Shown here: positions 166-43,156 of the stretch, piece by piece
Layout: the number at the start of each line of letters is the position of its first letter
Numbering within the stretch: position 1 is the first letter of the stretch
IMG/VR virus record: IMGVR_UViG_3300027917_000041
Coordinates: 1 to 64,000 of that record
Source: a virus
Length of the DNA: 64,000 nucleotides
Direction: 5' to 3' (one strand)
Made by a program: the position numbers and the translations under genes
Notes under the pieces: generated by a model
Database searches by the model: none
What the model saw: the letters and a program-made list of their open reading frames with translations, nothing else
What the model was told of the DNA's origin: nothing

Positions 166-471
166 TTACAGATTGCCGTAAACTCTGCCGATTACGAAAT
201 CAAACTCGAACACATCAATGACCATGCTAACCATGTCCGCTGTAAGTACCTGATCTACAGCGTCCGGTTTGTAGTTCTCGTATACTTCGATTTGCCAATC
301 TGCCCTACCATTACCAGCAACCAATAATAGACCTTGTGAATATTCTTCATCTTTATTAGCTTCATCAACATATCCCTGAAACTGCATCATAGCTTCTTTG
401 ATATTGTTAGCTACAATAACTGCCTTTATCTCCTCGAACTCCTCAAACAAATAAATCTTTATAGTTTCCAT
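166..471 (-). CDS. hypothetical protein
   Basis: 101 aa ORF translationally coupled to RNR stop (TAATG). Confidence 0.7.
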   Translation of the reverse strand: METIKIYLFEEFEEIKAVIVANNIKEAMMQFQGYVDEANKDEEYSQGLLLVAGNGRADWQIEVYENYKPDAVDQVLTADMVSMVIDVFEFDFVIGRVYGNL

Positions 472-3080
472 TAATTTACTCCTGTATTTAAGATTTGAAA
501 TAGTTTGCTATTGGTACGATAGATTGTACCACCTTTGAGATTAGATACCCACATGGCTATTATAGCCTCATAGATATCCACTGGCGTACTTTCTTCTGGT
601 AAGTTGATAGTCTTTGAGATAGCATTATCAACCGACGATTGCCAGTTTGCTTGCATTTTTATATGCCATTCCGGATGTATCTCTTGAGAAGTCCTAAAGC
701 TGGGCTTTACCTTGTCGTAAATTTTTCCAGCACCTTCTAAAGTACCTTGTCTTTCGATACGTCTAGTTAATATCTCTATCTCGTCCTCGGAATAACCATA
801 CTCCATAAGTCTACGGAATAGTATTGGATTGACTTCTGTGACCACTTCCTTAGCTTCATTACCCACACCATCTGTAATGTTCCTCGTATAAGCTAGGGCA
901 AAGAAAGGTTCTATACTGGAATTTACACCAGCAAGTAACGAAATTGAACCTGTTGGTGCAATGCTTGTCACAGCAACATTTCGTAAACCTAAGTGCCTTA
1001 CATCAACTTCTTCGATCTGTTTCGCGGCATATTCTGGATTATTCAAGATACGCATGACAGTACGTAAATCAACCTTTTCGCTATCATACATATCAAATAC
1101 ACCACGTTCATCAGCCAATGCCATAGATTGTAGATAAGCAAAGTAGGTAATGAACCAACTCAGCCTCTTAGCCAAGTCCAAAGCTTCATCAGAATCATAT
1201 GGTATATCTAACTCAGCCAACAAGTCAGCCCACCCCATAACTCCCAAACCAATACGCCTTAGACCTTTAGACCACTCATTTATATCTTGTATTGGTGTTT
1301 CGCTAATTTCCTGTACGCTATCTAAGAACGTTACAGCATTACGTACAATAAACTCTAAAAATTCCCAATTCACATCGTTAGTAGCTGCATTGTACATCTT
1401 GTGTAAATTGATTGAACCTAAACAGCATGGCTCATATCTCAGCAAAGGTACTTCACCGCAGTTTGCCGATACAATACCAGTAAAGAAGTCTTTGGTTGAG
1501 TCGGGGTCTGCTATTACATAGGCGTGGGTTTCATCCACCACACCATTGTAAACGTCGGATTTGCCCGCTGGTTTTACAGATACTACTTTGTGGTTCTTAC
1601 TAAACCCGGCTCTGTGGCGTTCTGCATAGTGAATGCTATTATGCATCGCCGGGGTTAGGGCTTGCAAATTATCCCAATGGTTGTCATTTTCAATCATATT
1701 TAGGTGGTGGATAATATGCCCTTCCGGAATCCCACCAAAGAAATACTCATAAACCATTCTAGCTGTATACTGATGTTGTACTTTGCCCTCAGCATACCCA
1801 TGCACTCTAACGTGACCATCCTTGTGTACTTCTCCCCTATAAGCACGGATAGATTGCCCAACCTTAAGGTCTTTAGCCTCTACCTTTTTACCTCGAATGG
1901 TAAATAAATTATGGTCAGGCGTACATCTAAGTTTTAGACCACTATCAAACTCTACTTCTAAAACGTCTACATTTTCTCTGGTCTTACGAATATCGTGCAT
2001 GATTGCTACTTCTGGTAGTTTGGTTTCTTTATTCCATGTGTAAACTAGGACATCAAAACCTTCTTCTTCAAGTTCCTTGATAGGTTTAGCACCTTCTAAG
2101 ACGGTCATGATAAGTGTATCACCAGTAACGCATGGATTAGTTACTTCCAAATTACCAAGATATTTCACCATATTATCTTCATTTGCTCTATCCAAAAATA
2201 ATACACCGGGATCACCACTAGCCCAAGATTGCTCAGCTATAGAAAACAATAATTCCCTAGCGTTGACTGTTTTGGTTACGCTACCGTCTACTCTAGAAAT
2301 CAAATTCCAATCTTCATCGTTTACTACGGCGTTCATAAAATCATCCGTAAGTGCGACCGAAATGTTGAAATGAGTAAGCTGGTCATCTACCAATGTCTTT
2401 TCTAAGATGTCAAAATAAGCCTTGCCGTCTGTGGCTTTTCTAGCCCTACGTAAATGGTCTTTGTACGTGTCCAAAAGTCTAGCGTTTCTTTGATTTGGTT
2501 CTGACTTGAAATGAATAAACTTTTCAATGTCTGGATGGTCAATGTTCAATACACCCATTTGAGCACCACGCCTAGACGCTTGCTGGATTACTTCACCAGT
2601 GTTATCAAACAAACTCATAAAGCTAAGTGGGCCGCTTGCCTCTCCACCTGTAGTTTTGATACGTGCGCCTTCTTCCCTTAGATTAGAAAAGTTGTATCCC
2701 AAACCACCACCCCAAGCAAAAATCTCAGCTGCGTTACCCAAAGTTTGATATATTGATTTACGACTATCATCAATAGGTAACACAAAACAATTATTAAGAT
2801 TTTTAATATCCGTACCTGCGTTCGCTAATATCCTACCGCCGGGGATAAAAACTAACTCGTTTATCATGTTGTAAAAGGTATCGATCTTACGTTCCTCATC
2901 TTCCTGCACTTCTTTTACATTCTTACCTTTGTCTACTATATCTTTATCATGATAAGCGTAAGCAACGTTAATAGCAACCCTAAGACACGTTTGTTTCCAA
3001 GTTTCAACGTTCCCTTGCTCGTCTTTAAGGGCATACTTTCTTTCATGTATTAGTTTACCAATAGGATTTAGCTCTGCCAT
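471..3080 (-). CDS. nrdJ: class II (B12-dependent) ribonucleotide reductase, intein-containing
   Basis: PGGRILANAG, NCFV, RRGAQMG, NP-[intein]-CGE, RRIGLGVMG, IAPTGSIS, ISKTINLP motifs; no NrdB in window. Confidence 0.9.
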   Translation of the reverse strand: MAELNPIGKLIHERKYALKDEQGNVETWKQTCLRVAINVAYAYHDKDIVDKGKNVKEVQEDEERKIDTFYNMINELVFIPGGRILANAGTDIKNLNNCFVLPIDDSRKSIYQTLGNAAEIFAWGGGLGYNFSNLREEGARIKTTGGEASGPLSFMSLFDNTGEVIQQASRRGAQMGVLNIDHPDIEKFIHFKSEPNQRNARLLDTYKDHLRRARKATDGKAYFDILEKTLVDDQLTHFNISVALTDDFMNAVVNDEDWNLISRVDGSVTKTVNARELLFSIAEQSWASGDPGVLFLDRANEDNMVKYLGNLEVTNPCVTGDTLIMTVLEGAKPIKELEEEGFDVLVYTWNKETKLPEVAIMHDIRKTRENVDVLEVEFDSGLKLRCTPDHNLFTIRGKKVEAKDLKVGQSIRAYRGEVHKDGHVRVHGYAEGKVQHQYTARMVYEYFFGGIPEGHIIHHLNMIENDNHWDNLQALTPAMHNSIHYAERHRAGFSKNHKVVSVKPAGKSDVYNGVVDETHAYVIADPDSTKDFFTGIVSANCGEVPLLRYEPCCLGSINLHKMYNAATNDVNWEFLEFIVRNAVTFLDSVQEISETPIQDINEWSKGLRRIGLGVMGWADLLAELDIPYDSDEALDLAKRLSWFITYFAYLQSMALADERGVFDMYDSEKVDLRTVMRILNNPEYAAKQIEEVDVRHLGLRNVAVTSIAPTGSISLLAGVNSSIEPFFALAYTRNITDGVGNEAKEVVTEVNPILFRRLMEYGYSEDEIEILTRRIERQGTLEGAGKIYDKVKPSFRTSQEIHPEWHIKMQANWQSSVDNAISKTINLPEESTPVDIYEAIIAMWVSNLKGGTIYRTNSKLFQILNTGVN
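1461..2132 (-). mobile_element. intein (224 aa) with HNH homing endonuclease domain
   Basis: Starts CVTGDT, block B CTPDH, ends SAN before the +1 Cys; internal HHLN..NDN..DNL......HN..H. Confidence 0.9.
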
Positions 3081-5533: not shown

Positions 5534-6081
5534 GCTGTAACTCCTAACAACACTTCGGGTATCTCTAATATACTTTGAACTGTTGTGAATTCTGGTTGAA
5601 TAATCTCATTCCAAGGCTGTGCTTTCAAAATAACGTTTGTAACATTTCGTAATTCTAAAGCGTGCTTGGTCATATCCTCAATGAAAAACTCAATATTATG
5701 ATCTACTACGTAAGGTACTTTACTTTCTGTGGCGAAAATCAAATTATCAGTATGGGGTATACGACTACTTTCCAACCACCACTTTGTAGCAAATCTAACA
5801 TCTAATGCTCTGGATGTAATATAGAATAGCTCTTGACCACTATTAGCCAAATCCCAAAGCACATTCCTGACACTATCGGGCATTATCTTTTTTGTGTAAA
5901 AGATGGGAGTTTTCATTAGAAAACCCTGCAAAGTATCGTTTTGCTGAGGTAGCCAATTGTTCCAGAAATCAGCATAGTTTACATTCTCTACACCTTTATG
6001 GCTATCCTGCATCCATTCATAAACCACACCATGCCAATCGTAAAGTACACCATCTAGGTCAAACCCTACTTTACCATTCAT
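5530..6081 (-). CDS. HAD-family 5'(3')-deoxynucleotidase-like protein
   Basis: GFDLDGV, ITSR, K, FIED, PWN; start taken at ATG 6081. Confidence 0.8.
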   Translation of the reverse strand: MNGKVGFDLDGVLYDWHGVVYEWMQDSHKGVENVNYADFWNNWLPQQNDTLQGFLMKTPIFYTKKIMPDSVRNVLWDLANSGQELFYITSRALDVRFATKWWLESSRIPHTDNLIFATESKVPYVVDHNIEFFIEDMTKHALELRNVTNVILKAQPWNEIIQPEFTTVQSILEIPEVLLGVTA

Positions 6082-9385: not shown

Positions 9386-9609
9386 TTTAACTCCTCGAAA
9401 TCAACTGTAATGGTTGCTTTTACAACACAAGCATTTTCTGGCATATAGTCGGGATACAGTTTAGTAATAGCTATCTCTGCACTTTTTTTATCCATATAAG
9501 GTGTGCCTCTAAAACGATGAACTTCCCAATTTTTTTGACTTGAGTTGAAAAATAAAATCCAACCATTTTTTGCCCTATATCCAACATACCACTTTATTTC
9601 GGTTTCCAT
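9382..9609 (-). CDS. hypothetical protein
   Basis: coupled ORF with RBS. Confidence 0.6.
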   Translation of the reverse strand: METEIKWYVGYRAKNGWILFFNSSQKNWEVHRFRGTPYMDKKSAEIAITKLYPDYMPENACVVKATITVDFEELK

Positions 9610-9878
9610 AATCTGTCCTCCAATCGTAGTACCACCTGTAGCTTATTAGGGTGTCCACTTGATTTAGCTACCCTAAAATCGTAATCAGAGAAGAATATTT
9701 CTAAATAGTCTAAAAACCATTTGAAATCTTTATTTAATGTTACTTCATTATGTATACACTCAAACTCTAGTGAGCAACTATTATCATCTTTAAGAATGAT
9801 GAAGTCTTTCCAATCTTCAAAGAAACCATCCTTAACTTTTTTATCAAACCATTCCCTAAACGTCTCCGTTTCTGGCAT
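9594..9878 (-). CDS. hypothetical protein
   Basis: ATG 9878 preceded by AAGGA. Confidence 0.6.
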   Translation of the reverse strand: MPETETFREWFDKKVKDGFFEDWKDFIILKDDNSCSLEFECIHNEVTLNKDFKWFLDYLEIFFSDYDFRVAKSSGHPNKLQVVLRLEDRLWKPK

Positions 9879-10029
9879 TTTCCTTTTCCTTTCGTTTCTT
9901 ACGTAACAGTTCATCACGGCGTTTACGCTGTATTTCCTGAATTAGAAATACGCTATCACCATCACGCCCATGCTTACGCTTATTTTTTCTTTTTCTATCT
10001 CGCCTTTCGGCTTTATATATGTTAGGCAT
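9856..10029 (-). CDS. small highly basic protein (57 aa, probably leaderless; not in ORF track)
   Basis: MPNIYKAERRDRKRKNKRK...; ATG 6 nt after TATAAT. Confidence 0.6.
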   Translation of the reverse strand: MPNIYKAERRDRKRKNKRKHGRDGDSVFLIQEIQRKRRDELLRKKRKEKENARNGDV

Positions 10030-23869: not shown

Positions 23870-23898
23870 ATTATACCATGGATTTAGTGTTTTGTCAA
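23870..23898 (-). promoter_or_regulatory. sigma70-type promoter giving a probable leaderless rnhA mRNA
   Basis: TTGACA-17-TATAAT, ATG 6 nt downstream. Confidence 0.8.
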
Positions 23899-23910
23899 GT
23901 ACTAATTTTA

Positions 23911-23983
23911 GGCATACCCAGCTGGACTTGAACCAGCACCGAGGGGTTTGGAGTCCCTAATGCTACCATTACACCACGGATAT
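23911..23983 (-). tRNA. tRNA-Trp(CCA)
   Basis: cloverleaf, loop CTCCAAA, G73, ends CC-TA. Confidence 0.9.
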
Positions 23984-23988
23984 GTATA

Positions 23989-24062
23989 GGAGCGTGTGAC
24001 AGGAGTCGCACCTGCACCGTATGGTTGGAAGCCACCCATGCTACTGTTAACACCACACACGC
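23989..24062 (-). tRNA. tRNA-Gly(TCC)
   Basis: loop CTTCCAA, U73; T-loop TGCGACT. Confidence 0.85.
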
Positions 24063-24067
24063 ACTTA

Positions 24068-24157
24068 GGCGGAGAATACAGGGATCGAACCTGTACATCG
24101 GAGTTACCGACATCACCGTTTTCAAGACGGATAAGCACGCCAGCCTTGCGACTCTCC
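24068..24157 (-). tRNA. tRNA-Ser(TGA)
   Basis: loop CTTGAAA, long variable arm, G73. Confidence 0.85.
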
Positions 24158-24160
24158 GTA

Positions 24161-24247
24161 GGCGGAAGGTAGAGGGATCGAACCTCTGCATCCGGTTGGA
24201 TGGTTATGGTTTAGCAAACCAGCGCATTACCACTCTGCCAACCTTCC
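24161..24247 (-). tRNA. tRNA-Ser(GCT)
   Basis: loop TTGCTAA, long variable arm. Confidence 0.9.
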
Positions 24248-24251
24248 AATA

Positions 24252-24337
24252 GGTCGCTATGGCAGGATTCGAACCTGCATGGACACATGCCCACCATGGT
24301 TTGAGCATGGCGTGTATACCAATTCCACCACACAGCG
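24252..24337 (-). tRNA. tRNA-Leu(CAA)
   Basis: loop CTCAAAC, long variable arm, A73. Confidence 0.9.
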
Positions 24338-24340
24338 ATA

Positions 24341-24416
24341 GGTGCTGAACCCTAGACTCGAACTAGGAATCTTCCGCGTATCAGACGGATGCGTTAACCA
24401 GTTACGCTAGTCCAGC
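24341..24416 (-). tRNA. tRNA-Ile(GAT)
   Basis: loop CTGATAC. Confidence 0.9.
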
Positions 24417-24420
24417 ATTA

Positions 24421-24494
24421 GGTGACTCTACAGGGGATTGAACCCTGATTCTCAGCTTGAGGGGCTGATGTCCTATCCATTAGACGATAGAGCC
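24421..24494 (-). tRNA. tRNA-Glu(CTC)
   Basis: loop CCCTCAA (C33). Confidence 0.85.
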
Positions 24495-24499
24495 ATATA

Positions 24500-24583
24500 G
24501 GTGCTCTAGAGAGGAGTCGAACCTCTACGCCCGAAGGCACTTGGGTTTAAGTCAAGCGTGTCTGCCAATTCCACCACAAGAGC
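24500..24583 (-). tRNA. tRNA-Leu(TAA)
   Basis: loop CTTAAAC, long variable arm. Confidence 0.9.
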
Positions 24584-24589
24584 ATTTTA

Positions 24590-24774
24590 GACCACCCGTA
24601 GGCAGGATTCTGTTCTATGCTATCATTTATCTTTGCACCAACCCGACTATTATAGCGTAGCTCACCCGCTAAGTCTGTTTGGCTTGCTACCTAGGTAGTG
24701 CAAACGGCTTATGCCTCCTACCGTGAGCTAAGTAGTCCTGACCTTCCTCTGTTTCCAGCGATAGCTCGATGGTC
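24590..24774 (-). ncRNA. rnpB: miniature RNase P RNA (catalytic domain only)
   Basis: CR-I GAGGAAGGUCAGGA pairs with CR-V ACAGAAUCCUGCCU (P4 with bulged U); CR-IV AGAUAAAU; P1, P2, P3, P5, P6, P7, P15, P16 and P17 all pair. Confidence 0.88.
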
Positions 24775-24777
24775 TTA

Positions 24778-24851
24778 GGAGTCCTAGGTGGGAGTCGAAC
24801 CCACTCTACAGCGTTTTGCAGACGCTTTCCTAGCCATTCGGAATCTAGGAC
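24778..24851 (-). tRNA. tRNA-Cys(GCA)
   Basis: loop CTGCAAA, U73. Confidence 0.9.
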
Positions 24852-24856
24852 ATTTA

Positions 24857-24929
24857 GGCTGAGGGTACTGGATTTGCACCAATGATACTTGGTTCAGAGC
24901 CAAGGGGTTTACTGTTAGCCTAACCCTCA
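24857..24929 (-). tRNA. tRNA-Gln(CTG)
   Basis: U1-A72, loop CTCTGAA; T-loop TGCAAAT. Confidence 0.85.
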
Positions 24930-24934
24930 GTATA

Positions 24935-25010
24935 GGCGGTTACTACGAGATTCGAACTCGCATATTCTTCCTTGACAGGGAAGCCCATTAACCAATTATG
25001 GTAAGCAACC
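24935..25010 (-). tRNA. tRNA-Asp(GTC)
   Basis: loop CTGTCAA, G73. Confidence 0.9.
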
Positions 25011-25014
25011 ATTA

Positions 25015-25091
25015 TGGAGCTGAATACTGGATTCGAACCAGTACTTCTTGGTTACAAAGCAAGCGTGCTTGACCATTAACACTAATCCAGC
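25015..25091 (-). tRNA. tRNA-Thr(TGT), the only one with encoded CCA
   Basis: loop TTTGTAA; ends TCCA. Confidence 0.9.
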
Positions 25092-25096
25092 TTGTA

Positions 25097-25170
25097 GGTG
25101 ACATCTGACGGATTCGAACCGACACTTCCCTGATTGAAAGTCAGGTGTCCTTCCAGTAGACGAAGATGCC
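25097..25170 (-). tRNA. tRNA-Glu(TTC)
   Basis: loop CTTTCAA. Confidence 0.9.
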
Positions 25171-25174
25171 ATAC

Positions 25175-25218
25175 CGCAGGGCTTTCGCCCTGCACCCTGC
25201 CACGAATGGTCAGGGGTG
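25175..25218 (-). ncRNA. small two-hairpin structured element
   Basis: CACCCCUGACCA-UUCG-UGGCAGGGUG followed by CAGGGC-GAAA-GCCCUG. Confidence 0.45.
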
Positions 25219-25221
25219 ATA

Positions 25222-25297
25222 GGTGCAGGATACAGGACTCGAACCTGTGTTCTCTTTTTTGTAAGAAAAGCGATTTCACCAGCTAATCTAATCCTGC
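25222..25297 (-). tRNA. tRNA-Val(TAC)
   Basis: loop CTTACAA. Confidence 0.9.
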
Positions 25298-25302
25298 AAA
25301 TT

Positions 25303-25348
25303 GGTCTTGTTTTTGTAGCTTCTGGTACAAGACCGTAAACCTAGCTAC
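25303..25348 (-). ncRNA. predicted H-type pseudoknot RNA
   Basis: GUAGCU/AGCUAC and GGUCUUGU/ACAAGACC stems interleaved. Confidence 0.55.
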
Positions 25349-25352
25349 CGCA

Positions 25353-25427
25353 GGTGGACAAGACGAGATTCGAACTCGTATTACTTCTGTGCAAGAGAAG
25401 TGTGTTCCCAATTGTCACTACTCGCCC
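25353..25427 (-). tRNA. tRNA-Ala(TGC)
   Basis: G3-U70, loop CTTGCAC; ends CC-TG. Confidence 0.9.
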
Positions 25428-25429
25428 AA

Positions 25430-25505
25430 GGTACTCCGTGGAGGATTTGAACCTCCATCTCGTAGGTTAAGAGCCTAGTGGGTTAGCCGTTAACCCCAAC
25501 GGAGT
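25430..25505 (-). tRNA. tRNA-Lys(CTT)
   Basis: loop CTCTTAA; ends CC-TT. Confidence 0.9.
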
Positions 25506-25513
25506 ATGTACAT

Positions 25514-25591
25514 CCAGTCTACGTTAATCGGAACCTCGTCCGATGCTTATATGCGTGTCCAGCGTAGACCAGTGAGAGCCGCTAAGCTCCC
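25514..25591 (-). ncRNA. unidentified ~80-nt structured RNA
   Basis: GGGAGC/GCUCUC hairpin, then CUGGUCUACG/CGUAGACUGG stem enclosing an AUCGGA/UCCGAU hairpin. Confidence 0.5.
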
Positions 25592-25595
25592 TATA

Positions 25596-25678
25596 GGTGC
25601 GCCCGGAGAGAGTCGAACTCCCACAGCTTATAGCGGGTGGTTTACAGCCACTTGGACTCGCCATTGTCCAGCAGACGC
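25596..25678 (-). tRNA. tRNA-Tyr(GTA)
   Basis: loop CTGTAAA, variable arm. Confidence 0.9.
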
Positions 25679-25682
25679 ATTA

Positions 25683-25757
25683 GGTAGCGGAGGACGGAGT
25701 TGAACCGACTTGGGACAGTTTATGAGACTGCCGAGTTTACCGAAACTCTACTCCGCA
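25683..25757 (-). tRNA. tRNA-Met(CAT), initiator-like acceptor end
   Basis: loop CTCATAA; U1:U72 mismatch. Confidence 0.85.
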
Positions 25758-25762
25758 ATATA

Positions 25763-25840
25763 GGTACTGGCACTTGGATTCGAACCAAGACCTTACAGTT
25801 TAAAAGACTGATGTGCTAGACCGTTAAACACCATACCAGT
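25763..25840 (-). tRNA. tRNA-Lys(TTT)
   Basis: loop CTTTTAA. Confidence 0.9.
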
Positions 25841-25847
25841 ATATTTA

Positions 25848-25920
25848 GGTGTAGACCCCCGGAGTCGAACCGGGCTTGTCCGGGCTTCAACCGGATGCAT
25901 AACCACTCTGCCAAGTCCAC
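25848..25920 (-). tRNA. tRNA-Phe(GAA)
   Basis: loop TTGAAGC. Confidence 0.9.
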
Positions 25921-25925
25921 ATTTA

Positions 25926-26000
25926 GGTACTCGCACTAGGATTCGAACCTAGACTCAACCGTATATAAGACGGACGTGTTCACCATTACACTATGCGAGT
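25926..26000 (-). tRNA. tRNA-Ile(TAT)
   Basis: loop CTTATAT. Confidence 0.85.
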
Positions 26001-26005
26001 ATGTA

Positions 26006-26079
26006 GGCTGAGGGTGAAGGGGTCGAACCTCCATTTCAGGCTTCAAAGACCTTAGTCTTTACCATTAGACGAACCCTCA
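26006..26079 (-). tRNA. tRNA-Gln(TTG)
   Basis: U1-A72, loop CTTTGAA, G73. Confidence 0.9.
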
Positions 26080-26087
26080 ATATTGAC

Positions 26088-26116
26088 ATTATAACACAAA
26101 AATTGATATTTGTCAA
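26088..26116 (-). promoter_or_regulatory. internal promoter of the tRNA array
   Basis: TTGACA-17-TATAAT, 8 nt upstream of tRNA-Gln(TTG). Confidence 0.85.
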
Positions 26117-26129
26117 GTACCAATTTCTA

Positions 26130-26203
26130 GGAGCATCTAGCAGGGGTCGAACCTGCACTACTTGGTTCGTAGCCAAGTGGTCTATCCATTAGCCTATAGA
26201 TGC
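26130..26203 (-). tRNA. tRNA-Arg(ACG)
   Basis: loop CTACGAA, A20. Confidence 0.9.
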
Positions 26204-26207
26204 ATTA

Positions 26208-26281
26208 GGCGCAACCAAGAGGACTCGAACCTCTTCCATGGGCTTAGAACACCCTTATGCGATCCACTACACCATGGTTGC
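26208..26281 (-). tRNA. tRNA-Arg(TCT)
   Basis: loop GTTCTAA, A20, G73. Confidence 0.85.
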
Positions 26282-26419
26282 AATTTTATGTAAGATACGC
26301 CAAAATAGGTTATCTCGTTTCCAGATAGAAGTATGATCTTCTCTAAATCCCCATAGAAAATACCAGTCTATCTTAATACCACCTTTCTTGCGTTTGCTTA
26401 CCTTACCAATTTTTGTCAT
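26267..26419 (-). CDS. small basic/aromatic ORF inside tRNA array (50 aa)
   Basis: MTKIGKVSKRKKGGIKIDWYFLWGF...; ATG directly follows tRNA-Asn CC-T. Confidence 0.4.
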   Translation of the reverse strand: MTKIGKVSKRKKGGIKIDWYFLWGFREDHTSIWKRDNLFWRILHKIATMV

Positions 26420-26420
26420 A

Positions 26421-26494
26421 GGCACTCAGGGGCGGGGTCGAACCACCGTCACCACGGTTAACAGCCGTGTGCATTACCATTATGCTACCCGAGT
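26421..26494 (-). tRNA. tRNA-Asn(GTT)
   Basis: loop CTGTTAA, G73. Confidence 0.9.
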
Positions 26495-26499
26495 GTATA

Positions 26500-26575
26500 G
26501 GGGTAATCGGTGAGTCTCGAACTCACTATAACTGTGTTCACAGCACAGCGTCGCACCAGTTTGACTTCGATCACC
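26500..26575 (-). tRNA. tRNA-His(GTG)
   Basis: G-1:C73, loop CTGTGAA. Confidence 0.9.
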
Positions 26576-26580
26576 ATATA

Positions 26581-26664
26581 GGTGCTTCTCGTGGGAGTCG
26601 AACCCACATGAGTCTCCTCACTAGTTTCTAAGACTAGAGCGTATACCAATTCCGCCAGAGAAGC
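26581..26664 (-). tRNA. tRNA-Leu(TAG)
   Basis: loop CTTAGAA, long variable arm. Confidence 0.9.
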
Positions 26665-26667
26665 ATA

Positions 26668-26740
26668 GGTCAAGGTGAGAGGAATCGAACCTCTTCCGCA
26701 GAGTCCCAAACTCCGTGTGCGGCCATTACACCACACCCTG
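26668..26740 (-). tRNA. tRNA-Pro(TGG)
   Basis: C1-G72, loop TTTGGGA. Confidence 0.9.
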
Positions 26741-26902: not shown

Positions 26903-26931
26903 ATTATACCATAAAAAGTTGCATTTGTCAA
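26903..26931 (-). promoter_or_regulatory. leftward promoter of the tRNA array
   Basis: TTGACA-17-TATAAT, TGn extended -10. Confidence 0.85.
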
Positions 26932-27006: not shown

Positions 27007-27094
27007 AGTATATACCAATTGTTAATGTACAAGTGCTTTTGTAAGCATAGTACAATTATAACACAGAATAGGGAGTTTGTCAAGAGGCAATTTT

Positions 27095-36801: not shown

Positions 36802-38355
36802 TTGGCATTAGTCGAAAAAGTTAATCAAGTAGATGATTTATACTTCTATGAGATTATGCGTAATCCAGTACTGTGTGGGGAATTTATTCAAAATTACGAC
36901 AAAGCTGAGTGGGAAGAATCATTTGAATTTACAATCTATCAGAAAGAAATTCTATGCGACTTCAATACGCACGTTTCAGTTTGTACAGCCCGAGCTACAG
37001 GAAAGACCGTAAGTTTTGTAAATCTATTGCTGTGGGTATTGGTATTTAATTTATTCCCCGGCGATTATATAGTTTACTCAGTACCTAACAAGGTACACCT
37101 TGAACCTGTGTTTACGGGTCTAGTGAGGATGTTACGTGGTAACACCTTCATGAAACAGTTTATAGCGTCAGCAAAGGGTATTAACCAATCTACAAATACG
37201 GTTACTTTGCTGAATGGAGCGGTACTTTTATGTCGTATCGCTGGTCAGACAGGTACAGGTGCTAACGTTATCGGTTTGCACACACCTTTTACATTAGTAG
37301 ACGAAGGCGGGTATTATCCTTGGGGTACTTGGGTAGAGCAACAACCTACCATGAACACTTTCACACCCGGTTTTAGATTGGGTGTAGCAGGAGTGCCGAC
37401 AGGCTTAAGAGAAAATAATGTTCTGTATCATGCCGATATGGAAAACTCTAACTATACAAAGCATCGTTTGTCTGCATATGACAATCCACGGTTTACACAA
37501 GAAGATGAAGATCGTGCCGTTGAGCAGTACGGCAGTAAAGAAAGCGATGACTTTATACATCTTGTTCTTGGACAACACGGAGCACCAATCTTTGCCGTGT
37601 TCGACAGACAGCTGTTTCAAATAGAGGGTTATCCAGTACACAAGCTGGTACTAGATGGTATCAAAATTCAAGGAAACTTAGCAGAATATCAGACCAAATT
37701 ATCATTTCTTCCTAATCTTGAATATAAGAATGCCAAAGTACTTGTAGGAATAGACTTGGGATATACCGATCCAACAGCTATTGTTATTCTGTATGACCGT
37801 GGAAATGGAATTTTGAAATTCCATGCTAGAATACAGCTAAACAAGGTAGCCTATCCAATTCAAGAGAAAATCATAGATTGGGTAGATACTAAATTTAATC
37901 CGTCTATAATTGGTCTTGATGTTGGTTCGTCCGGTTTAGCCGTGTCGCAAACGCTGTTGGAAGGGGATGCCTATAAACGTAAGAAGTACAAGGATAGACT
38001 TATTCCTATAAACTTCTCGTCAATGGTAGTAATCGGTGTAGACTCCGATGGAGAGGAGCTAAAGCAGAAAACAAAACCGTTCTCTGTTTCTGTATTACAA
38101 ACCTATTCTAACAATCATAGAATAGTGTATTCTTCAACTGATATGGAGTTGATTGCCGAACTTGAACGTATGACTTATACTAAAACTGTAACAGGGGATA
38201 TTGTGTACAAAACAATGACTCCGCAGGGTGGACAAAGAGGGGAAGATCACTTTACAGCAGCTATGTTATGTGCAGGAATGGCTTATTATTTAGAAAATGA
38301 AAGTTTGGTTCTCAACACCAAAACAAAGAAATTGCTGAAAGCAAGGTGGATATAA
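36802..38355 (+). CDS. terL: terminase large subunit
   Basis: ARATGKT Walker A, LVDE Walker B, GIDLG..D, C-terminal DH. Confidence 0.85.
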   Translation: MALVEKVNQVDDLYFYEIMRNPVLCGEFIQNYDKAEWEESFEFTIYQKEILCDFNTHVSVCTARATGKTVSFVNLLLWVLVFNLFPGDYIVYSVPNKVHLEPVFTGLVRMLRGNTFMKQFIASAKGINQSTNTVTLLNGAVLLCRIAGQTGTGANVIGLHTPFTLVDEGGYYPWGTWVEQQPTMNTFTPGFRLGVAGVPTGLRENNVLYHADMENSNYTKHRLSAYDNPRFTQEDEDRAVEQYGSKESDDFIHLVLGQHGAPIFAVFDRQLFQIEGYPVHKLVLDGIKIQGNLAEYQTKLSFLPNLEYKNAKVLVGIDLGYTDPTAIVILYDRGNGILKFHARIQLNKVAYPIQEKIIDWVDTKFNPSIIGLDVGSSGLAVSQTLLEGDAYKRKKYKDRLIPINFSSMVVIGVDSDGEELKQKTKPFSVSVLQTYSNNHRIVYSSTDMELIAELERMTYTKTVTGDIVYKTMTPQGGQRGEDHFTAAMLCAGMAYYLENESLVLNTKTKKLLKARWI

Positions 38356-38356
38356 T

Positions 38357-39856
38357 ATGACAGATGAAATAACAAAACAATCAAAGCTAGCCAAAGCTGC
38401 CTTCATGAACACACGAAACAACATTTCAATGCAGAATCCATGGATGGCAGACCAAGTAGATAAGCTTGAAATCGTTGATATAGAGGAGTTCAAGAAGATC
38501 GTATTTGCTTGTAGATTCTTTTATAAGCGTGATCCTATTGCGTCCACCGTTATCAACAAGATGATTGATATTGGTATTACCGATATCGATTTTGAGCGTT
38601 CTGAATTGAATAATAATGAGGAAAACCTAATTACAGGTATGCTACCTAAGCTTCTGGACTTTGCTGAGGCTATGGCAATGGAATACCTTATTTCTGGTTT
38701 GGTAATTCCAGAAGTAAAGTTCACTACTGTCAGCAAAGCAGAATTAGATGAAGCCGGGTTCAATATCAAAAAATACTCTGCCCTCACATTACCTACTTCT
38801 ATGTGGGTACGTGATCCAGCAACCCTGATTGTTAAAAGTCCGGGTCTGTCAGATAAGCAATCGTATTTTATCAAGATACCCGATAAACTGGTTGACTTCA
38901 TTACTTCAAAGGGTAGCTATGATAATTTAATGGAAGATAAGGAACTTTATCGTTATCTTTTAACAGCCTACCCGCAGTTTGTTGACGCTGTACGTAGAGG
39001 ACAGCTATTCTTCAAACTGGAAAATCCTACTGTTATTCGTCGTAAGGTAGTTAGTGACTCGCCCTATCCAATTCCATATCTGTACGCATCAATCGAGGCT
39101 ATGAAGCACAAGAGAAACATTCGTAGGATGGACTACTCGATTGCATCAAGGGTTATTTCAGCTATCCAGCTAATTAAACTTGGTAATGACGAGTATCCAC
39201 TAACAGAAGATGATGAAGAACAATTGCAGGATATCAAAGATCAAATGTATTGGCGTAACACCGGAAACATTGACGTTGAACGTATTTTCCAATTATTCTC
39301 TAACCACACCCTAGATATAACATGGGTATTTCCTGATACAGAAGCATTGTTAGATGATACTAAATATAAGGAAGTAAATCGTGATATCTTCTATGGTCTA
39401 GGTTTTCCTGCTATCTTAGCTACTGGTGAAACAGAACGTTCATCCGCATCCGATGCTGAATATGCTATGTTAAGCCCTGTGGAGACTATGGAATCCTACA
39501 GACGTAAGATTATCCAAGTTTTGAACAAGGTAGTTGCGGATACGCTAGAAAATAATGGAATGAAAGGTTCTACTACTTTGAGATTCAAGCCAATTAACCT
39601 ATCTAGCTTCCGTTACTTTGTAGACGCTATGATTAAGCTATATGAAACTGGTAACATTTCTAAGGAAACATTTGTTGAACAGTTCGGTATGAATTACCAA
39701 GATGAGTTTGAGCGTAGGGAGAGAGAAAAGGAACAATTAGACGCATCTGATCTTGAAGAATTTCCTCAGCAACCATTCACAAATCCAGCAGGACGTGATG
39801 GCGGTGGTACTGACGGAGATCAGAAAAATAGTGATTCGGACAAGGAAAGTGCATAA
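38357..39856 (+). CDS. portal protein
   Basis: 499 aa helical protein directly after terL. Confidence 0.75.
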   Translation: MTDEITKQSKLAKAAFMNTRNNISMQNPWMADQVDKLEIVDIEEFKKIVFACRFFYKRDPIASTVINKMIDIGITDIDFERSELNNNEENLITGMLPKLLDFAEAMAMEYLISGLVIPEVKFTTVSKAELDEAGFNIKKYSALTLPTSMWVRDPATLIVKSPGLSDKQSYFIKIPDKLVDFITSKGSYDNLMEDKELYRYLLTAYPQFVDAVRRGQLFFKLENPTVIRRKVVSDSPYPIPYLYASIEAMKHKRNIRRMDYSIASRVISAIQLIKLGNDEYPLTEDDEEQLQDIKDQMYWRNTGNIDVERIFQLFSNHTLDITWVFPDTEALLDDTKYKEVNRDIFYGLGFPAILATGETERSSASDAEYAMLSPVETMESYRRKIIQVLNKVVADTLENNGMKGSTTLRFKPINLSSFRYFVDAMIKLYETGNISKETFVEQFGMNYQDEFERREREKEQLDASDLEEFPQQPFTNPAGRDGGGTDGDQKNSDSDKESA

Positions 39857-41657: not shown

Positions 41658-42593
41658 ATGGATGAAAAGAGAATTAATGAAGCTGTAGCAGCTCTATTAA
41701 AGGATAATACGCCACAAGGTCGAGAAGCTTTAGCGGAAATGATTACTGAATTTGTTCAGCCGAATCATATCGGTGTGAACTTTATCAGTATGTTGCTAAA
41801 TACTCGTGCCTTACAGCCGGGTGATCTGCTAGTTAAAAAGATTCGTAAAGGGATCGATGTACGTACATTAGTTCCGGGTTCTATTCATCTTGCTAGTGAA
41901 ATCACTGTACAGGATCGTATCAACTACGTGTTGGACGGTGCTGACGTTAAGGTGACTTTCAACGAGTGGGAGCTAGAATCAGGGCAAATCGGTTCTGTCG
42001 AAGAAATCCGTAAGGAAATGTATGCCTACTTGTCAGATTATTATTTGAACAAGGTTTACACGCTATTAACTAGTGTGTGGACAGCGGGCAACACTCCTTC
42101 TAACTTTACTAACGTGGGTGGTTCAATCACAGCGTCAGCCCTAGAAGATGCGATTGACGAAATCAATCAAAATTCTGGTGGTGTGAAGGCTGTTGTTGGT
42201 ACTCGTGCAGCTATGACACCTATCACAAAGTTTGGTGCGTTCTGGAACGATGGTAATACTGTTGGTACAGATGCACAGTGGGCCGGTGTTAACTCACAGC
42301 TAGAAGAAATTGTTCAGCGTGGTATGCTTGGTAAGTACTACGGTGCGCCACTTATCTCACTTGAACAATCATATGACAACCCTGTTGACTATAACGAGTT
42401 GATTCTGCCTAATAACAGAATTTTGGTTATTGGTCACAACGTAGGTGAGTTTATCACTTACGGTGATGTAAAGAGAAAGCAATGGACTGACATGGAGCCA
42501 ACTCCTCCACAGTGGTTCTTGGAACTATATCAGCAGTTCGGTTTGATCATCGACCGTGCTCAGGGTATCTACGTGCTTCAAGTTACGGACTAA
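41658..42593 (+). CDS. major capsid protein
   Basis: 311 aa, position, G.LG.Y.G.P motif, strong RBS, downstream hairpin. Confidence 0.8.
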   Translation: MDEKRINEAVAALLKDNTPQGREALAEMITEFVQPNHIGVNFISMLLNTRALQPGDLLVKKIRKGIDVRTLVPGSIHLASEITVQDRINYVLDGADVKVTFNEWELESGQIGSVEEIRKEMYAYLSDYYLNKVYTLLTSVWTAGNTPSNFTNVGGSITASALEDAIDEINQNSGGVKAVVGTRAAMTPITKFGAFWNDGNTVGTDAQWAGVNSQLEEIVQRGMLGKYYGAPLISLEQSYDNPVDYNELILPNNRILVIGHNVGEFITYGDVKRKQWTDMEPTPPQWFLELYQQFGLIIDRAQGIYVLQVTD

Positions 42594-42604
42594 CACTTAG
42601 TTAT

Positions 42605-42637
42605 GGGAGGGGGTCAGGGGAACTCATGCCCCCTCCC
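42605..42637 (+). terminator. GC-rich hairpin after MCP
   Basis: GGGAGGGGG/CCCCCTCCC stem, poor U tract. Confidence 0.55.
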
Positions 42638-42661
42638 CAATTCTAATAGGAGAGGTATAAA

Positions 42662-43156
42662 ATGAATAAAGATTCACAGATGTATTCTGCTATGCAGAGT
42701 GACAATCCTTACGCTACATATAAGAAAGTTATCTTGGGGAAAGCTTCGGTAAAGGTTATTAACCCCTTCTCGGAGAATCCCGAGGAGATAATACTTGAAG
42801 GCAACCCCGGTAAGAATGAAGAAGGTTGCTTTATTGATGTATGGACACTAGAGCAAGATATGTTCTTCCAGCGTATAAATGAAACTCTAATTAAGCAGGG
42901 CGTAATTGTACCGTATGACCGTGTAAGCAAGCCTATTGTTAAGACGGTAAATGAGTACAATGTAAAGACCGATGAGGAACTCTATGAAATTTTGACAGCA
43001 CCTTTTTTCACGCTATCAAATGCGTTAGAAAAAATGGATTCCGAAGCCCCCGTACAGCGTTTGTTAAGTATTGCTGAGGATGAGGAAATGTCAGAAAAGA
43101 AAATCAATCATATTCGTCAAAGATTAGCGGAACTACAAGGAGTCAGCGTAGCATAA
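42662..43156 (+). CDS. hypothetical virion-module protein
   Basis: ORF with RBS. Confidence 0.65.
   Translation: MNKDSQMYSAMQSDNPYATYKKVILGKASVKVINPFSENPEEIILEGNPGKNEEGCFIDVWTLEQDMFFQRINETLIKQGVIVPYDRVSKPIVKTVNEYNVKTDEELYEILTAPFFTLSNALEKMDSEAPVQRLLSIAEDEEMSEKKINHIRQRLAELQGVSVA

Follow-up and report, generated by a model that had tools for sequence, protein, structure and literature searches.

Textbook bacterial tRNA genes template either the whole 3′-terminal CCA or none of it, each arrangement with its own route of 3′ maturation. The tRNA genes of bacteriophage T4, which we checked, are mixed, with CCA encoded in 4 of the 8 genes, a lone C in tRNA-Gln, CU in tRNA-Pro, and U-led trailers in tRNA-Ser and tRNA-Ile. 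The incomplete T4 tRNAs (Gln, Pro, Ser and Ile) are matured by the host RNase BN and tRNA nucleotidyltransferase. Here, we analyze an array of 28 tRNA genes and one RNase P RNA gene carried by an uncultured phage, in the first 64 kb (64,000 nucleotides; hereafter, the window) of the linear, 72,450-bp IMG/VR record IMGVR_UViG_3300027917_000041, which is about 80% complete. Nearly all tRNA genes of this array encode the two Cs of the tail followed by U. The array resembles the T4 genes in their tandem arrangement with very short spacers, in the part-templated CCA followed by U and, probably, in completion by host enzymes; unlike T4, where no gene is CC-U, it shows a single form in 27 of 28 genes, and the rule is family-wide. 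Many chloroplast tRNA genes similarly carry a partial CCA, and co-evolution of their trailers with the nuclease, a Thermotoga-type tRNase Z, has been proposed; however, these are organelle genes and not a tandem phage array, and no uniform CC-U rule is reported for them in excerpts of PMC3161902. As with the CCA-less genes of the Bacillus subtilis type, U starts the trailer and a CCA-adding enzyme must complete the end, but in those genes position 74 is a U and cleavage falls at the discriminator, whereas here C74, a known block to such cleavage, is present in all 28. Finally, the T5-like Salmonella phage S124, Vibrio phage Luma and Pseudomonas phage M5.1 also have about 19–27 tRNA genes beside replication genes, with short A/U-rich spacers, but template the full CCA, mostly followed by A.

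The 3′ ends were registered by pairing the first 7 bases of each gene with the 3′ strand of the acceptor stem and taking the next base as the discriminator; the stems pair at 7 of 7 positions in 26 genes and at 6 of 7 in 2. Positions 74–77 read CCUA in 25 genes, CCUU in tRNA-Lys(CTT), CCUG in tRNA-Ala(TGC) and CCAU in tRNA-Thr(TGT), so that the counts given in a first-pass annotation of this DNA proved exact when the ARAGORN predictions were tabulated. C74 and C75 are both invariant (28/28 each). The genes are thus neither of the Escherichia coli type, with a templated CCA (1 gene with CCA against 27 with CCT), nor of the CCA-less, RNase Z-dependent type, which has no C74; they are partial-CCA phage genes of the kind exemplified by T4 tRNA-Pro and tRNA-Gln, with CC followed by U in 27 of the 28. 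The A/U-rich spacers that follow C75 leave only 2–7 nt between neighboring tRNAs. All 28 genes, predicted with ARAGORN, are encoded by the minus strand (23911–26740) and are given here in the order of transcription, each with its discriminator and positions 74–77.

23909–26740, minus strand: the array, 28 tRNA genes and one RNase P RNA gene
26668–26740, minus strand: tRNA-Pro(TGG), A, CCUA
26581–26664, minus strand: tRNA-Leu(TAG), A, CCUA
26500–26574, minus strand: tRNA-His(GTG), C, CCUA
26421–26494, minus strand: tRNA-Asn(GTT), G, CCUA
26208–26281, minus strand: tRNA-Arg(TCT), G, CCUA
26130–26203, minus strand: tRNA-Arg(ACG), U, CCUA; the internal promoter comes next
26006–26079, minus strand: tRNA-Gln(TTG), G, CCUA
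25926–26000, minus strand: tRNA-Ile(TAT), A, CCUA
25848–25920, minus strand: tRNA-Phe(GAA), A, CCUA
25763–25840, minus strand: tRNA-Lys(TTT), A, CCUA
25683–25757, minus strand: tRNA-Met(CAT), A, CCUA; 1:72 mismatch (initiator-like)
25596–25678, minus strand: tRNA-Tyr(GTA), A, CCUA
25430–25505, minus strand: tRNA-Lys(CTT), A, CCUU; two bases (UU) between C75 and the next tRNA
25353–25427, minus strand: tRNA-Ala(TGC), A, CCUG
25222–25297, minus strand: tRNA-Val(TAC), A, CCUA
25097–25170, minus strand: tRNA-Glu(TTC), A, CCUA
25015–25091, minus strand: tRNA-Thr(TGT), U, CCAU; the only full CCA (the orthologue in relative G006 has CCUA)
24935–25010, minus strand: tRNA-Asp(GTC), G, CCUA
24857–24929, minus strand: tRNA-Gln(CTG), G, CCUA
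24778–24851, minus strand: tRNA-Cys(GCA), U, CCUA; the trailer leads directly into the RNase P RNA
24500–24583, minus strand: tRNA-Leu(TAA), A, CCUA
24421–24494, minus strand: tRNA-Glu(CTC), A, CCUA
24341–24416, minus strand: tRNA-Ile(GAT), A, CCUA
24252–24337, minus strand: tRNA-Leu(CAA), A, CCUA
24161–24247, minus strand: tRNA-Ser(GCT), G, CCUA
24068–24157, minus strand: tRNA-Ser(TGA), G, CCUA
23989–24062, minus strand: tRNA-Gly(TCC), U, CCUA
23911–23983, minus strand: tRNA-Trp(CCA), G, CCUA; the final gene in the array

A whole-window Rfam scan places 24 of the 28 tRNAs at or above the RF00005 gathering score (29 bits); tRNA-His and tRNA-Tyr exceed that score in a 5-kb E-value scan (44.4 and 38.2 bits), in which tRNA-Cys has no RF00005 row and tRNA-Ser(TGA) appears only under the tRNA-Sec model, below its threshold. 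The gene for tRNA-His (26500–26574, minus strand) templates a G at position −1 facing the C73 discriminator, the bacterial arrangement, and RNase P must therefore cut this precursor one base further upstream. With base frequencies of A.30, C.20, G.20 and T.31 on the strand that encodes the tRNAs, the probability of at least 27 CCT ends among 28 is about 4e-51, and that of at least 27 Ts at position 76, once CC is given, about 3e-13, or about 1.5e-7 if only A or T is allowed, values that assume independence, which genes of one array do not strictly possess.

We located relatives by searching with PolA and with a pattern that describes a pair of neighboring tRNAs both ending in CCTA, and compared whole records, which are denoted by G-numbers (G000 is the record of the window, G014 is contig L264 and G015 is contig L168). 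Among 2.9 million viral contigs, the doublet pattern matched 30 stretches, 13 of which are without tRNA and 7 of which hold arrays of at least 12 genes. The relatives and their tRNA ends are as follows (ORF, open reading frame).

G006: 12 G000 ORFs with tblastn matches, mean identity 77.5%; same tRNA order; CCU in 18/18 genes
G004: complete, with terminal repeats; 41 of 90 G000 ORFs matched; 22 CCU and 4 CCA among 27 genes by automatic registration
G007: 31 ORFs matched; 10 CCU, 2 CCA and 1 CUA among 13 genes
G003: same family; C74 in 26/26, CC in 6
G010: same family; C74 in 21/21, CC in 6
G009: same family; C74 in 15/17
G001: same family; 2 tRNAs, CUU and CUA
G005: distant; CCU in 11/17
G008: distant; C74 in 28/31, CC in 13

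For G004, the count becomes 23 CCU among 27 once tRNA-Met(CAT), at which two registers tie, is re-registered. The distant array of G008 is graded, with twelve CCU and eight CUA genes and three in which U comes right after the discriminator. In the closest comparison, the 18 tRNAs common to G000 and G006 are 90% identical on average, and the two phages agree at position 74 in 18, at 75 in 18, at 76 in 17 and at 77 in 15 of these, but further out in only 11 of 18 (position 78) and 10 of 18 (position 79). This retention of CC-U in diverged relatives, while the spacers change, argues that the end is under purifying selection, and the selection that the first-pass annotation had read from the uniformity of the array is borne out by it. 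At the population scale, none of 40 listed variant places in DNA contigs from four other runs falls in positions 73–77, where about 2 would be expected by chance, a difference that is not significant.

The arrays of the relatives also hold some unusual tRNAs. One gene of G003 (L010 3039–3112) encodes a 74-nt tRNA with the anticodon TCA that ARAGORN labels as SeC, although it is of ordinary length; this tRNA could be a UGA suppressor. Odd tRNAs in the distant arrays of G008 (5576–5650) and G014 (L264 6593–6667 and 7317–7392) are called as having a four-base anticodon (tctg) or as tRNA-Phe(AAA) and tRNA-Cys(ACA).

As far as tested, the CC-U habit does not look like one inherited from the host. 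When the doublet CCTA pattern, which is blind to hosts whose tRNA genes are never adjacent, was run over 185,579 bacterial and archaeal species, each represented by a single genome, 78 stretches matched and no comparable set was found: 5 stretches hold at least 3 tRNAs, none has more than 3 CCT ends, and several resemble phage contigs inside bins. A single-tRNA CCT pattern, which has 20 matches in the 72-kb phage record, finds 0–4 in five named genomes, 0–12 per genome in 121 Bacteroidota and 0–17 per genome in 101 Pseudomonadota, the 17 being scattered over separate contigs. Simple inheritance from the host, which the first-pass annotation had set out as the finding that would speak against its interpretation, was thus not encountered in the species-wide or the pattern-searched genomes. 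Three small contigs in bacterial metagenome-assembled genome bins (L059, L049 and L100) contain phage-like arrays with C74 or CCU tails (C74 in 13/13 for L059), and these are probably phage contigs caught in the bins rather than evidence on hosts. Nor is the U a general feature of phage arrays: S124, Luma and M5.1 encode CCA in 26/27, 21/22 and 18/19 genes, and position 77 is A in 22/27, 13/22 and 17/19 of their genes, respectively; the full-CCA array of G015 has CCAA in 6 of its 10 CCA genes. There is no U preference after a full CCA.

How would such tRNAs be finished? A76 is indispensable for tRNA function, and it is untemplated in 27 of the genes. Searches of G000, the complete G004, G005, G007, G008 and G010 detected no CCA-adding enzyme (PF01743); nor did they detect an RNase Z-type fold (PF12706) in G000 or the complete G004, or rnpA in G000, G004, G005, G007 and G008; an RNase T-family gene was found only in G008 among the records searched. 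Host enzymes must therefore, by inference, trim and finish the tRNAs, in line with the trimming and A-addition that had been proposed from the window itself. The reading that we favor, and regard as somewhat more probable than not taken as a whole, is that these are working partial-CCA genes of the T4 kind, with C74 and C75 templated, in which the U-led, A/U-rich trailer is trimmed and the host adds A76.

According to this scheme, the host RNA polymerase would transcribe the array from consensus promoters, and RNase P (the host enzyme, the mini RNA of the phage, described below, or both) would cut each 5′ end, leaving the upstream tRNA with a 2–8-nt trailer. C74 and C75 could serve in three ways. 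They would base-pair with the two Gs in loop L15 of RNase P, as the L15 Gs do with C74 and C75 in general (excerpts of PMC1874595). They would act as an anti-determinant against RNase Z cleavage at the discriminator: the first C is the strongest anti-determinant, a C or U in the second place enhances the effect and the third position is free, and the change of a UCU trailer to CCU blocks the human mitochondrial RNase Z (excerpts of PMC11649783); C74 is likewise the position with the greatest effect in the work that notes the partial CCA of chloroplast tRNA genes (excerpts of PMC3161902). The relatives that keep mostly a single C agree with the prediction of this rule, their position 75 being mostly C or U (18/26 in G003 and 17/21 in G010). 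Third, the two Cs would stall trimming exonucleases; RNase T is fast on A/U trailers and stops at CC, after which the CCA enzyme restores A (excerpts of PMC5824355). The trailer would be trimmed to CC either by such 3′ exonucleases or by an enzyme of the RNase BN/Z type, given that E. coli RNase BN takes off ends such as CU and CCU (excerpts of PMC7479834, citing Asha 1983), and a host CCA-adding (or A-adding) enzyme would supply A76. Each of these steps, and the identity of each enzyme, we infer from the end pattern, its conservation and the enzymes not detected in the phages.

Several considerations weigh against this reading. RNase T is not known from outside the gamma-proteobacteria. The roughly 20% of the genome that the G000 record lacks could contain a gene for a CCA-adding enzyme, although the complete G004 has none. 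Above all, the model gives no account of the U. Pooled over 12 phage records, and with related phages and orthologous genes included, so that these are not independent events, the base after CC is U in 119 genes, A in 14, G in 2 and C in 1, and the base after a single C is U in 45, A in 19 and G in 1. Trimming to CC works equally well with A at position 76, and therefore this roughly 9:1 excess of U over A stays unexplained; the excess also runs against the strand composition (A.30, T.31), and the RNase Z rule leaves position 76 free (excerpts of PMC11649783). Why selection avoids A there is not explained by the favored model.

The other conspicuous feature of the array is the RNase P RNA gene inserted between tRNA-Cys and tRNA-Leu(TAA), adjoining the latter.

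24583–24777, minus strand: mini RNase P RNA, 195 nt (RF00010)

It scores 61.5 bits (E 2e-17) against RF00010, below the gathering score of 100, and aligns end to end (model positions 1–367) with the bacterial type A model. Like type A RNase P RNA and the engineered C-domain-only 'mini' RNase P, it keeps the catalytic core, with P1–P5, P15, the P4 strands and the L15 GGU; unlike RF00010, it is phage-encoded and has lost the S-domain, about 140 model positions (P7–P14) being reduced to a hairpin stub of about 31 nt, as well as P18. A profile of the phage RNA (nhmmer) finds homologues in G004 (42496–42698), G007 (75421–75655) and G008 (9578–9919), and a pattern scan adds G014 (L264 4841–5059) and G015 (L168 3598–3772), so that at least 6 phage records carry the RNA; of the 101 pattern loci screened, 99 are chance matches. 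The family measures about 195–235 nt, shares the same stub (enlarged in G008, whose stub hairpin has gained 140 nt by insertion) and is usually found next to tRNA-Cys inside tRNA arrays, following it in G000, G004 and G007. The G007 homologue, missed by Rfam and found by the family-specific nhmmer profile, has compensatory changes in P4. Taken together, these features identify the 195-nt element, by its predicted structure, as a real RNase P RNA without an S-domain, and L15, which had been singled out in the window, proved to be kept as GGU in 6 of 6 phage RNAs. The base 5′ of the GGU varies among the six (G, U, U, G, A, G), and we reject an extended L15 pairing of that base, as G, with U76. 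The profile finds no homologue in G001, G003, G005, G006, G009, G010 and G011–G013; in G005 and G006 the contig ends before the array does, and absence there means nothing. In contigs from two of the four other runs, eight differences from the window fall inside the RNA (24703–24713 and 24654–24667), three of which make the stub loop a GAAA tetraloop, as in G004 and G007.

The first-pass annotation had tied the two features together, and this link did not hold up. The proposal is that CC was kept because an RNase P RNA without its S-domain docks its substrates through L15 and C74/C75, so that CC-U and the RNA co-evolved. C-domain-only ribozymes do lean more on the CCA contact, the phage RNA is real and its GGU is conserved, every untruncated CC-type array of the family has it (G000, G004 and G007), and the two C-only arrays with intact flanks (G003 and G010) are without it. 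However, homologous RNAs also sit in arrays that are mostly C74-only (CC in 13 of 31 genes in G008 and in 9 of 33 in G014) and in the full-CCA array of G015 (10/13), and C74 is invariant where the RNA was not found (26/26 in G003, 21/21 in G010 and 2/2 in G001); G003 and G010 are, moreover, fragments (34% and 47% complete). The tree groups are (G004, G007), G000 and (G001, G003, G010), and thus the co-occurrence within the family needs only one change. Docking also gives no reason for U rather than A at position 76, the extra U76 pair not being conserved. We therefore consider this explanation improbable: the RNA may well use C74 and C75 as every bacterial RNase P does, but it does not set CC-U apart. 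Even less can be said for the absence of any function, whether by inheritance from the host, as a leftover of tandem duplication or because an ancestral CCA decayed neutrally. Homology does connect the arrays of related phages, G000 and G006 sharing gene order, and A76 is in principle dispensable in the gene because CCA enzymes repair ends (excerpts of PMC5824355); but the species-wide doublet scan and the single-tRNA counts show no host with such a set, CCU was kept even as the bodies of the tRNAs diverged into 28 species, and U is favored against strand composition, all of which makes this null explanation barely credible.

More attention is due to the U itself, which may be a cleavage signal: an RNase Z/BN-type enzyme, blocked at the discriminator, would cut before the U that follows the last templated C, yielding tRNA-CC or tRNA-C, with the U fitting a uracil pocket. 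U indeed follows 0, 1 or 2 templated Cs (119/136 after CC and 45/65 after one C in the pooled counts) and is not preferred after a full CCA (G015 and the three cultured phages). The pocket of B. subtilis RNase Z holds the first trailer U, which is needed for hydrolysis (excerpts of PMC11649783, citing Pellegrini 2012), and where a CCA is present, several enzymes of the RNase Z type cleave immediately behind it (excerpts of PMC7479834). On the other hand, human mitochondrial RNase Z is completely blocked when the trailer is CCU (excerpts of PMC11649783). The exonuclease route accounts for the same pattern nearly as well. To our knowledge, no enzyme cuts between C75 and U76. We regard the signal as possible but unlikely; it would refine the favored reading by naming the nuclease. 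An equally tentative idea goes further, namely, that A76 is avoided deliberately and that a U cleavage signal after C75 or C74 forces all phage tRNAs through the A- or CCA-adding enzyme of the host. If so, the forced passage could be a quality or timing checkpoint or could shield precursors from CCA-tail nucleases, and it would represent a third bacterial tRNA 3′ route, in addition to the exonuclease route of genes that encode CCA and the RNase Z route of genes that do not. Shielding might even be the whole purpose, with CC-U precursors invisible to CCA-tail nucleases or toxins and forming a protected pool until maturation. The selective avoidance of A at position 76 would suit such a counter-defence, and Cas12a3, which cleaves the tails of tRNAs in phage defence, holding the two Cs in a clamp and the terminal A by stacking (excerpts of PMC12851939), is a nuclease of the relevant kind. 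Yet translation requires CCA, so that mature phage tRNAs become targets anyway, an encoded CCA would in any case be concealed by whatever trailer follows it, this analysis linked neither defence nor anti-defence genes to the array, and viral tRNAs have been argued to be unable to readily circumvent Cas12a3 defence (excerpts of PMC12851939); we deem this explanation very improbable.

Downstream of the array on the minus strand are genes of replication and nucleotide metabolism, namely, an intein-containing ribonucleotide reductase (RNR), methylases, DnaB, RecA, PolA and RNase H, whereas the packaging genes are on the plus strand. The array is flanked and interrupted by four promoters that match TTGACA-17-TATAAT perfectly and have the TG of an extended −10; they also precede the RNase H/PolA operon.

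27055–27083, minus strand: second upstream sigma-70 consensus promoter
26903–26931, minus strand: sigma-70 consensus promoter upstream of the array; 12/12 hexamer positions, 17-nt spacer, TG before the −10
26088–26116, minus strand: internal sigma-70 consensus promoter between tRNA-Arg(ACG) and tRNA-Gln(TTG); 12/12
23870–23898, minus strand: sigma-70 consensus promoter just after the array
471–3080, minus strand: RNR large subunit, split by an intein that contains an HNH endonuclease domain (Pfam)
36802–38355, plus strand: terminase large subunit (TerL)
38357–39856, plus strand: portal

With these four promoters around and inside it, the array looks strongly expressed and read by the host polymerase. 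They also hint at a host with a canonical sigma-70, and are the sole hint as to the host; such consensus promoters are a poor fit to those of Bacteroidota, and a look-up of the dehydratase across taxa returned mixed phyla. DNA of this phage occurs in metagenome runs from marine sediment, seawater and an estuary. Among deposited phages, megablast found no close DNA relative and sensitive blastn gave single-tRNA matches only; the closest PolA of a cultured phage is 27–31% identical, and TerL has one weak match (25%) among cultured phages but 619 homologues in metagenomes (E<=1e-20). G000 is a member of a large family of uncultured marine phages.

Partial CCA is already known from T4 and from chloroplasts, and the array described here is best read as a uniform, family-wide version of the T4 genes. 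A literature search, outside which lay most subscription journals and supplements, returned nothing on a whole CC-U array or its family-wide conservation, no graded CC-U / C-U / U series among relatives, and, on RNase P, general papers but no description of an RNase P RNA encoded by a phage. The phage RNase P RNA without an S-domain is the more unusual object of the two, and the CC-U tRNAs are natural substrates for learning what such an RNA needs from the 3′ end. The 28-gene array and those of its relatives sit between the two textbook arrangements, in that the two Cs that are read by RNase P, RNase Z and exonucleases are kept, whereas the A has become U. If the pattern reflects efficient trimming only, it is an ordinary extension of the decades-old lesson of T4. 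If, instead, the U is a signal, it would define how a nuclease chooses its cut site on partial-CCA precursors, and it would mean that a single repair enzyme of the host can be what all the tRNAs of a phage rely on.

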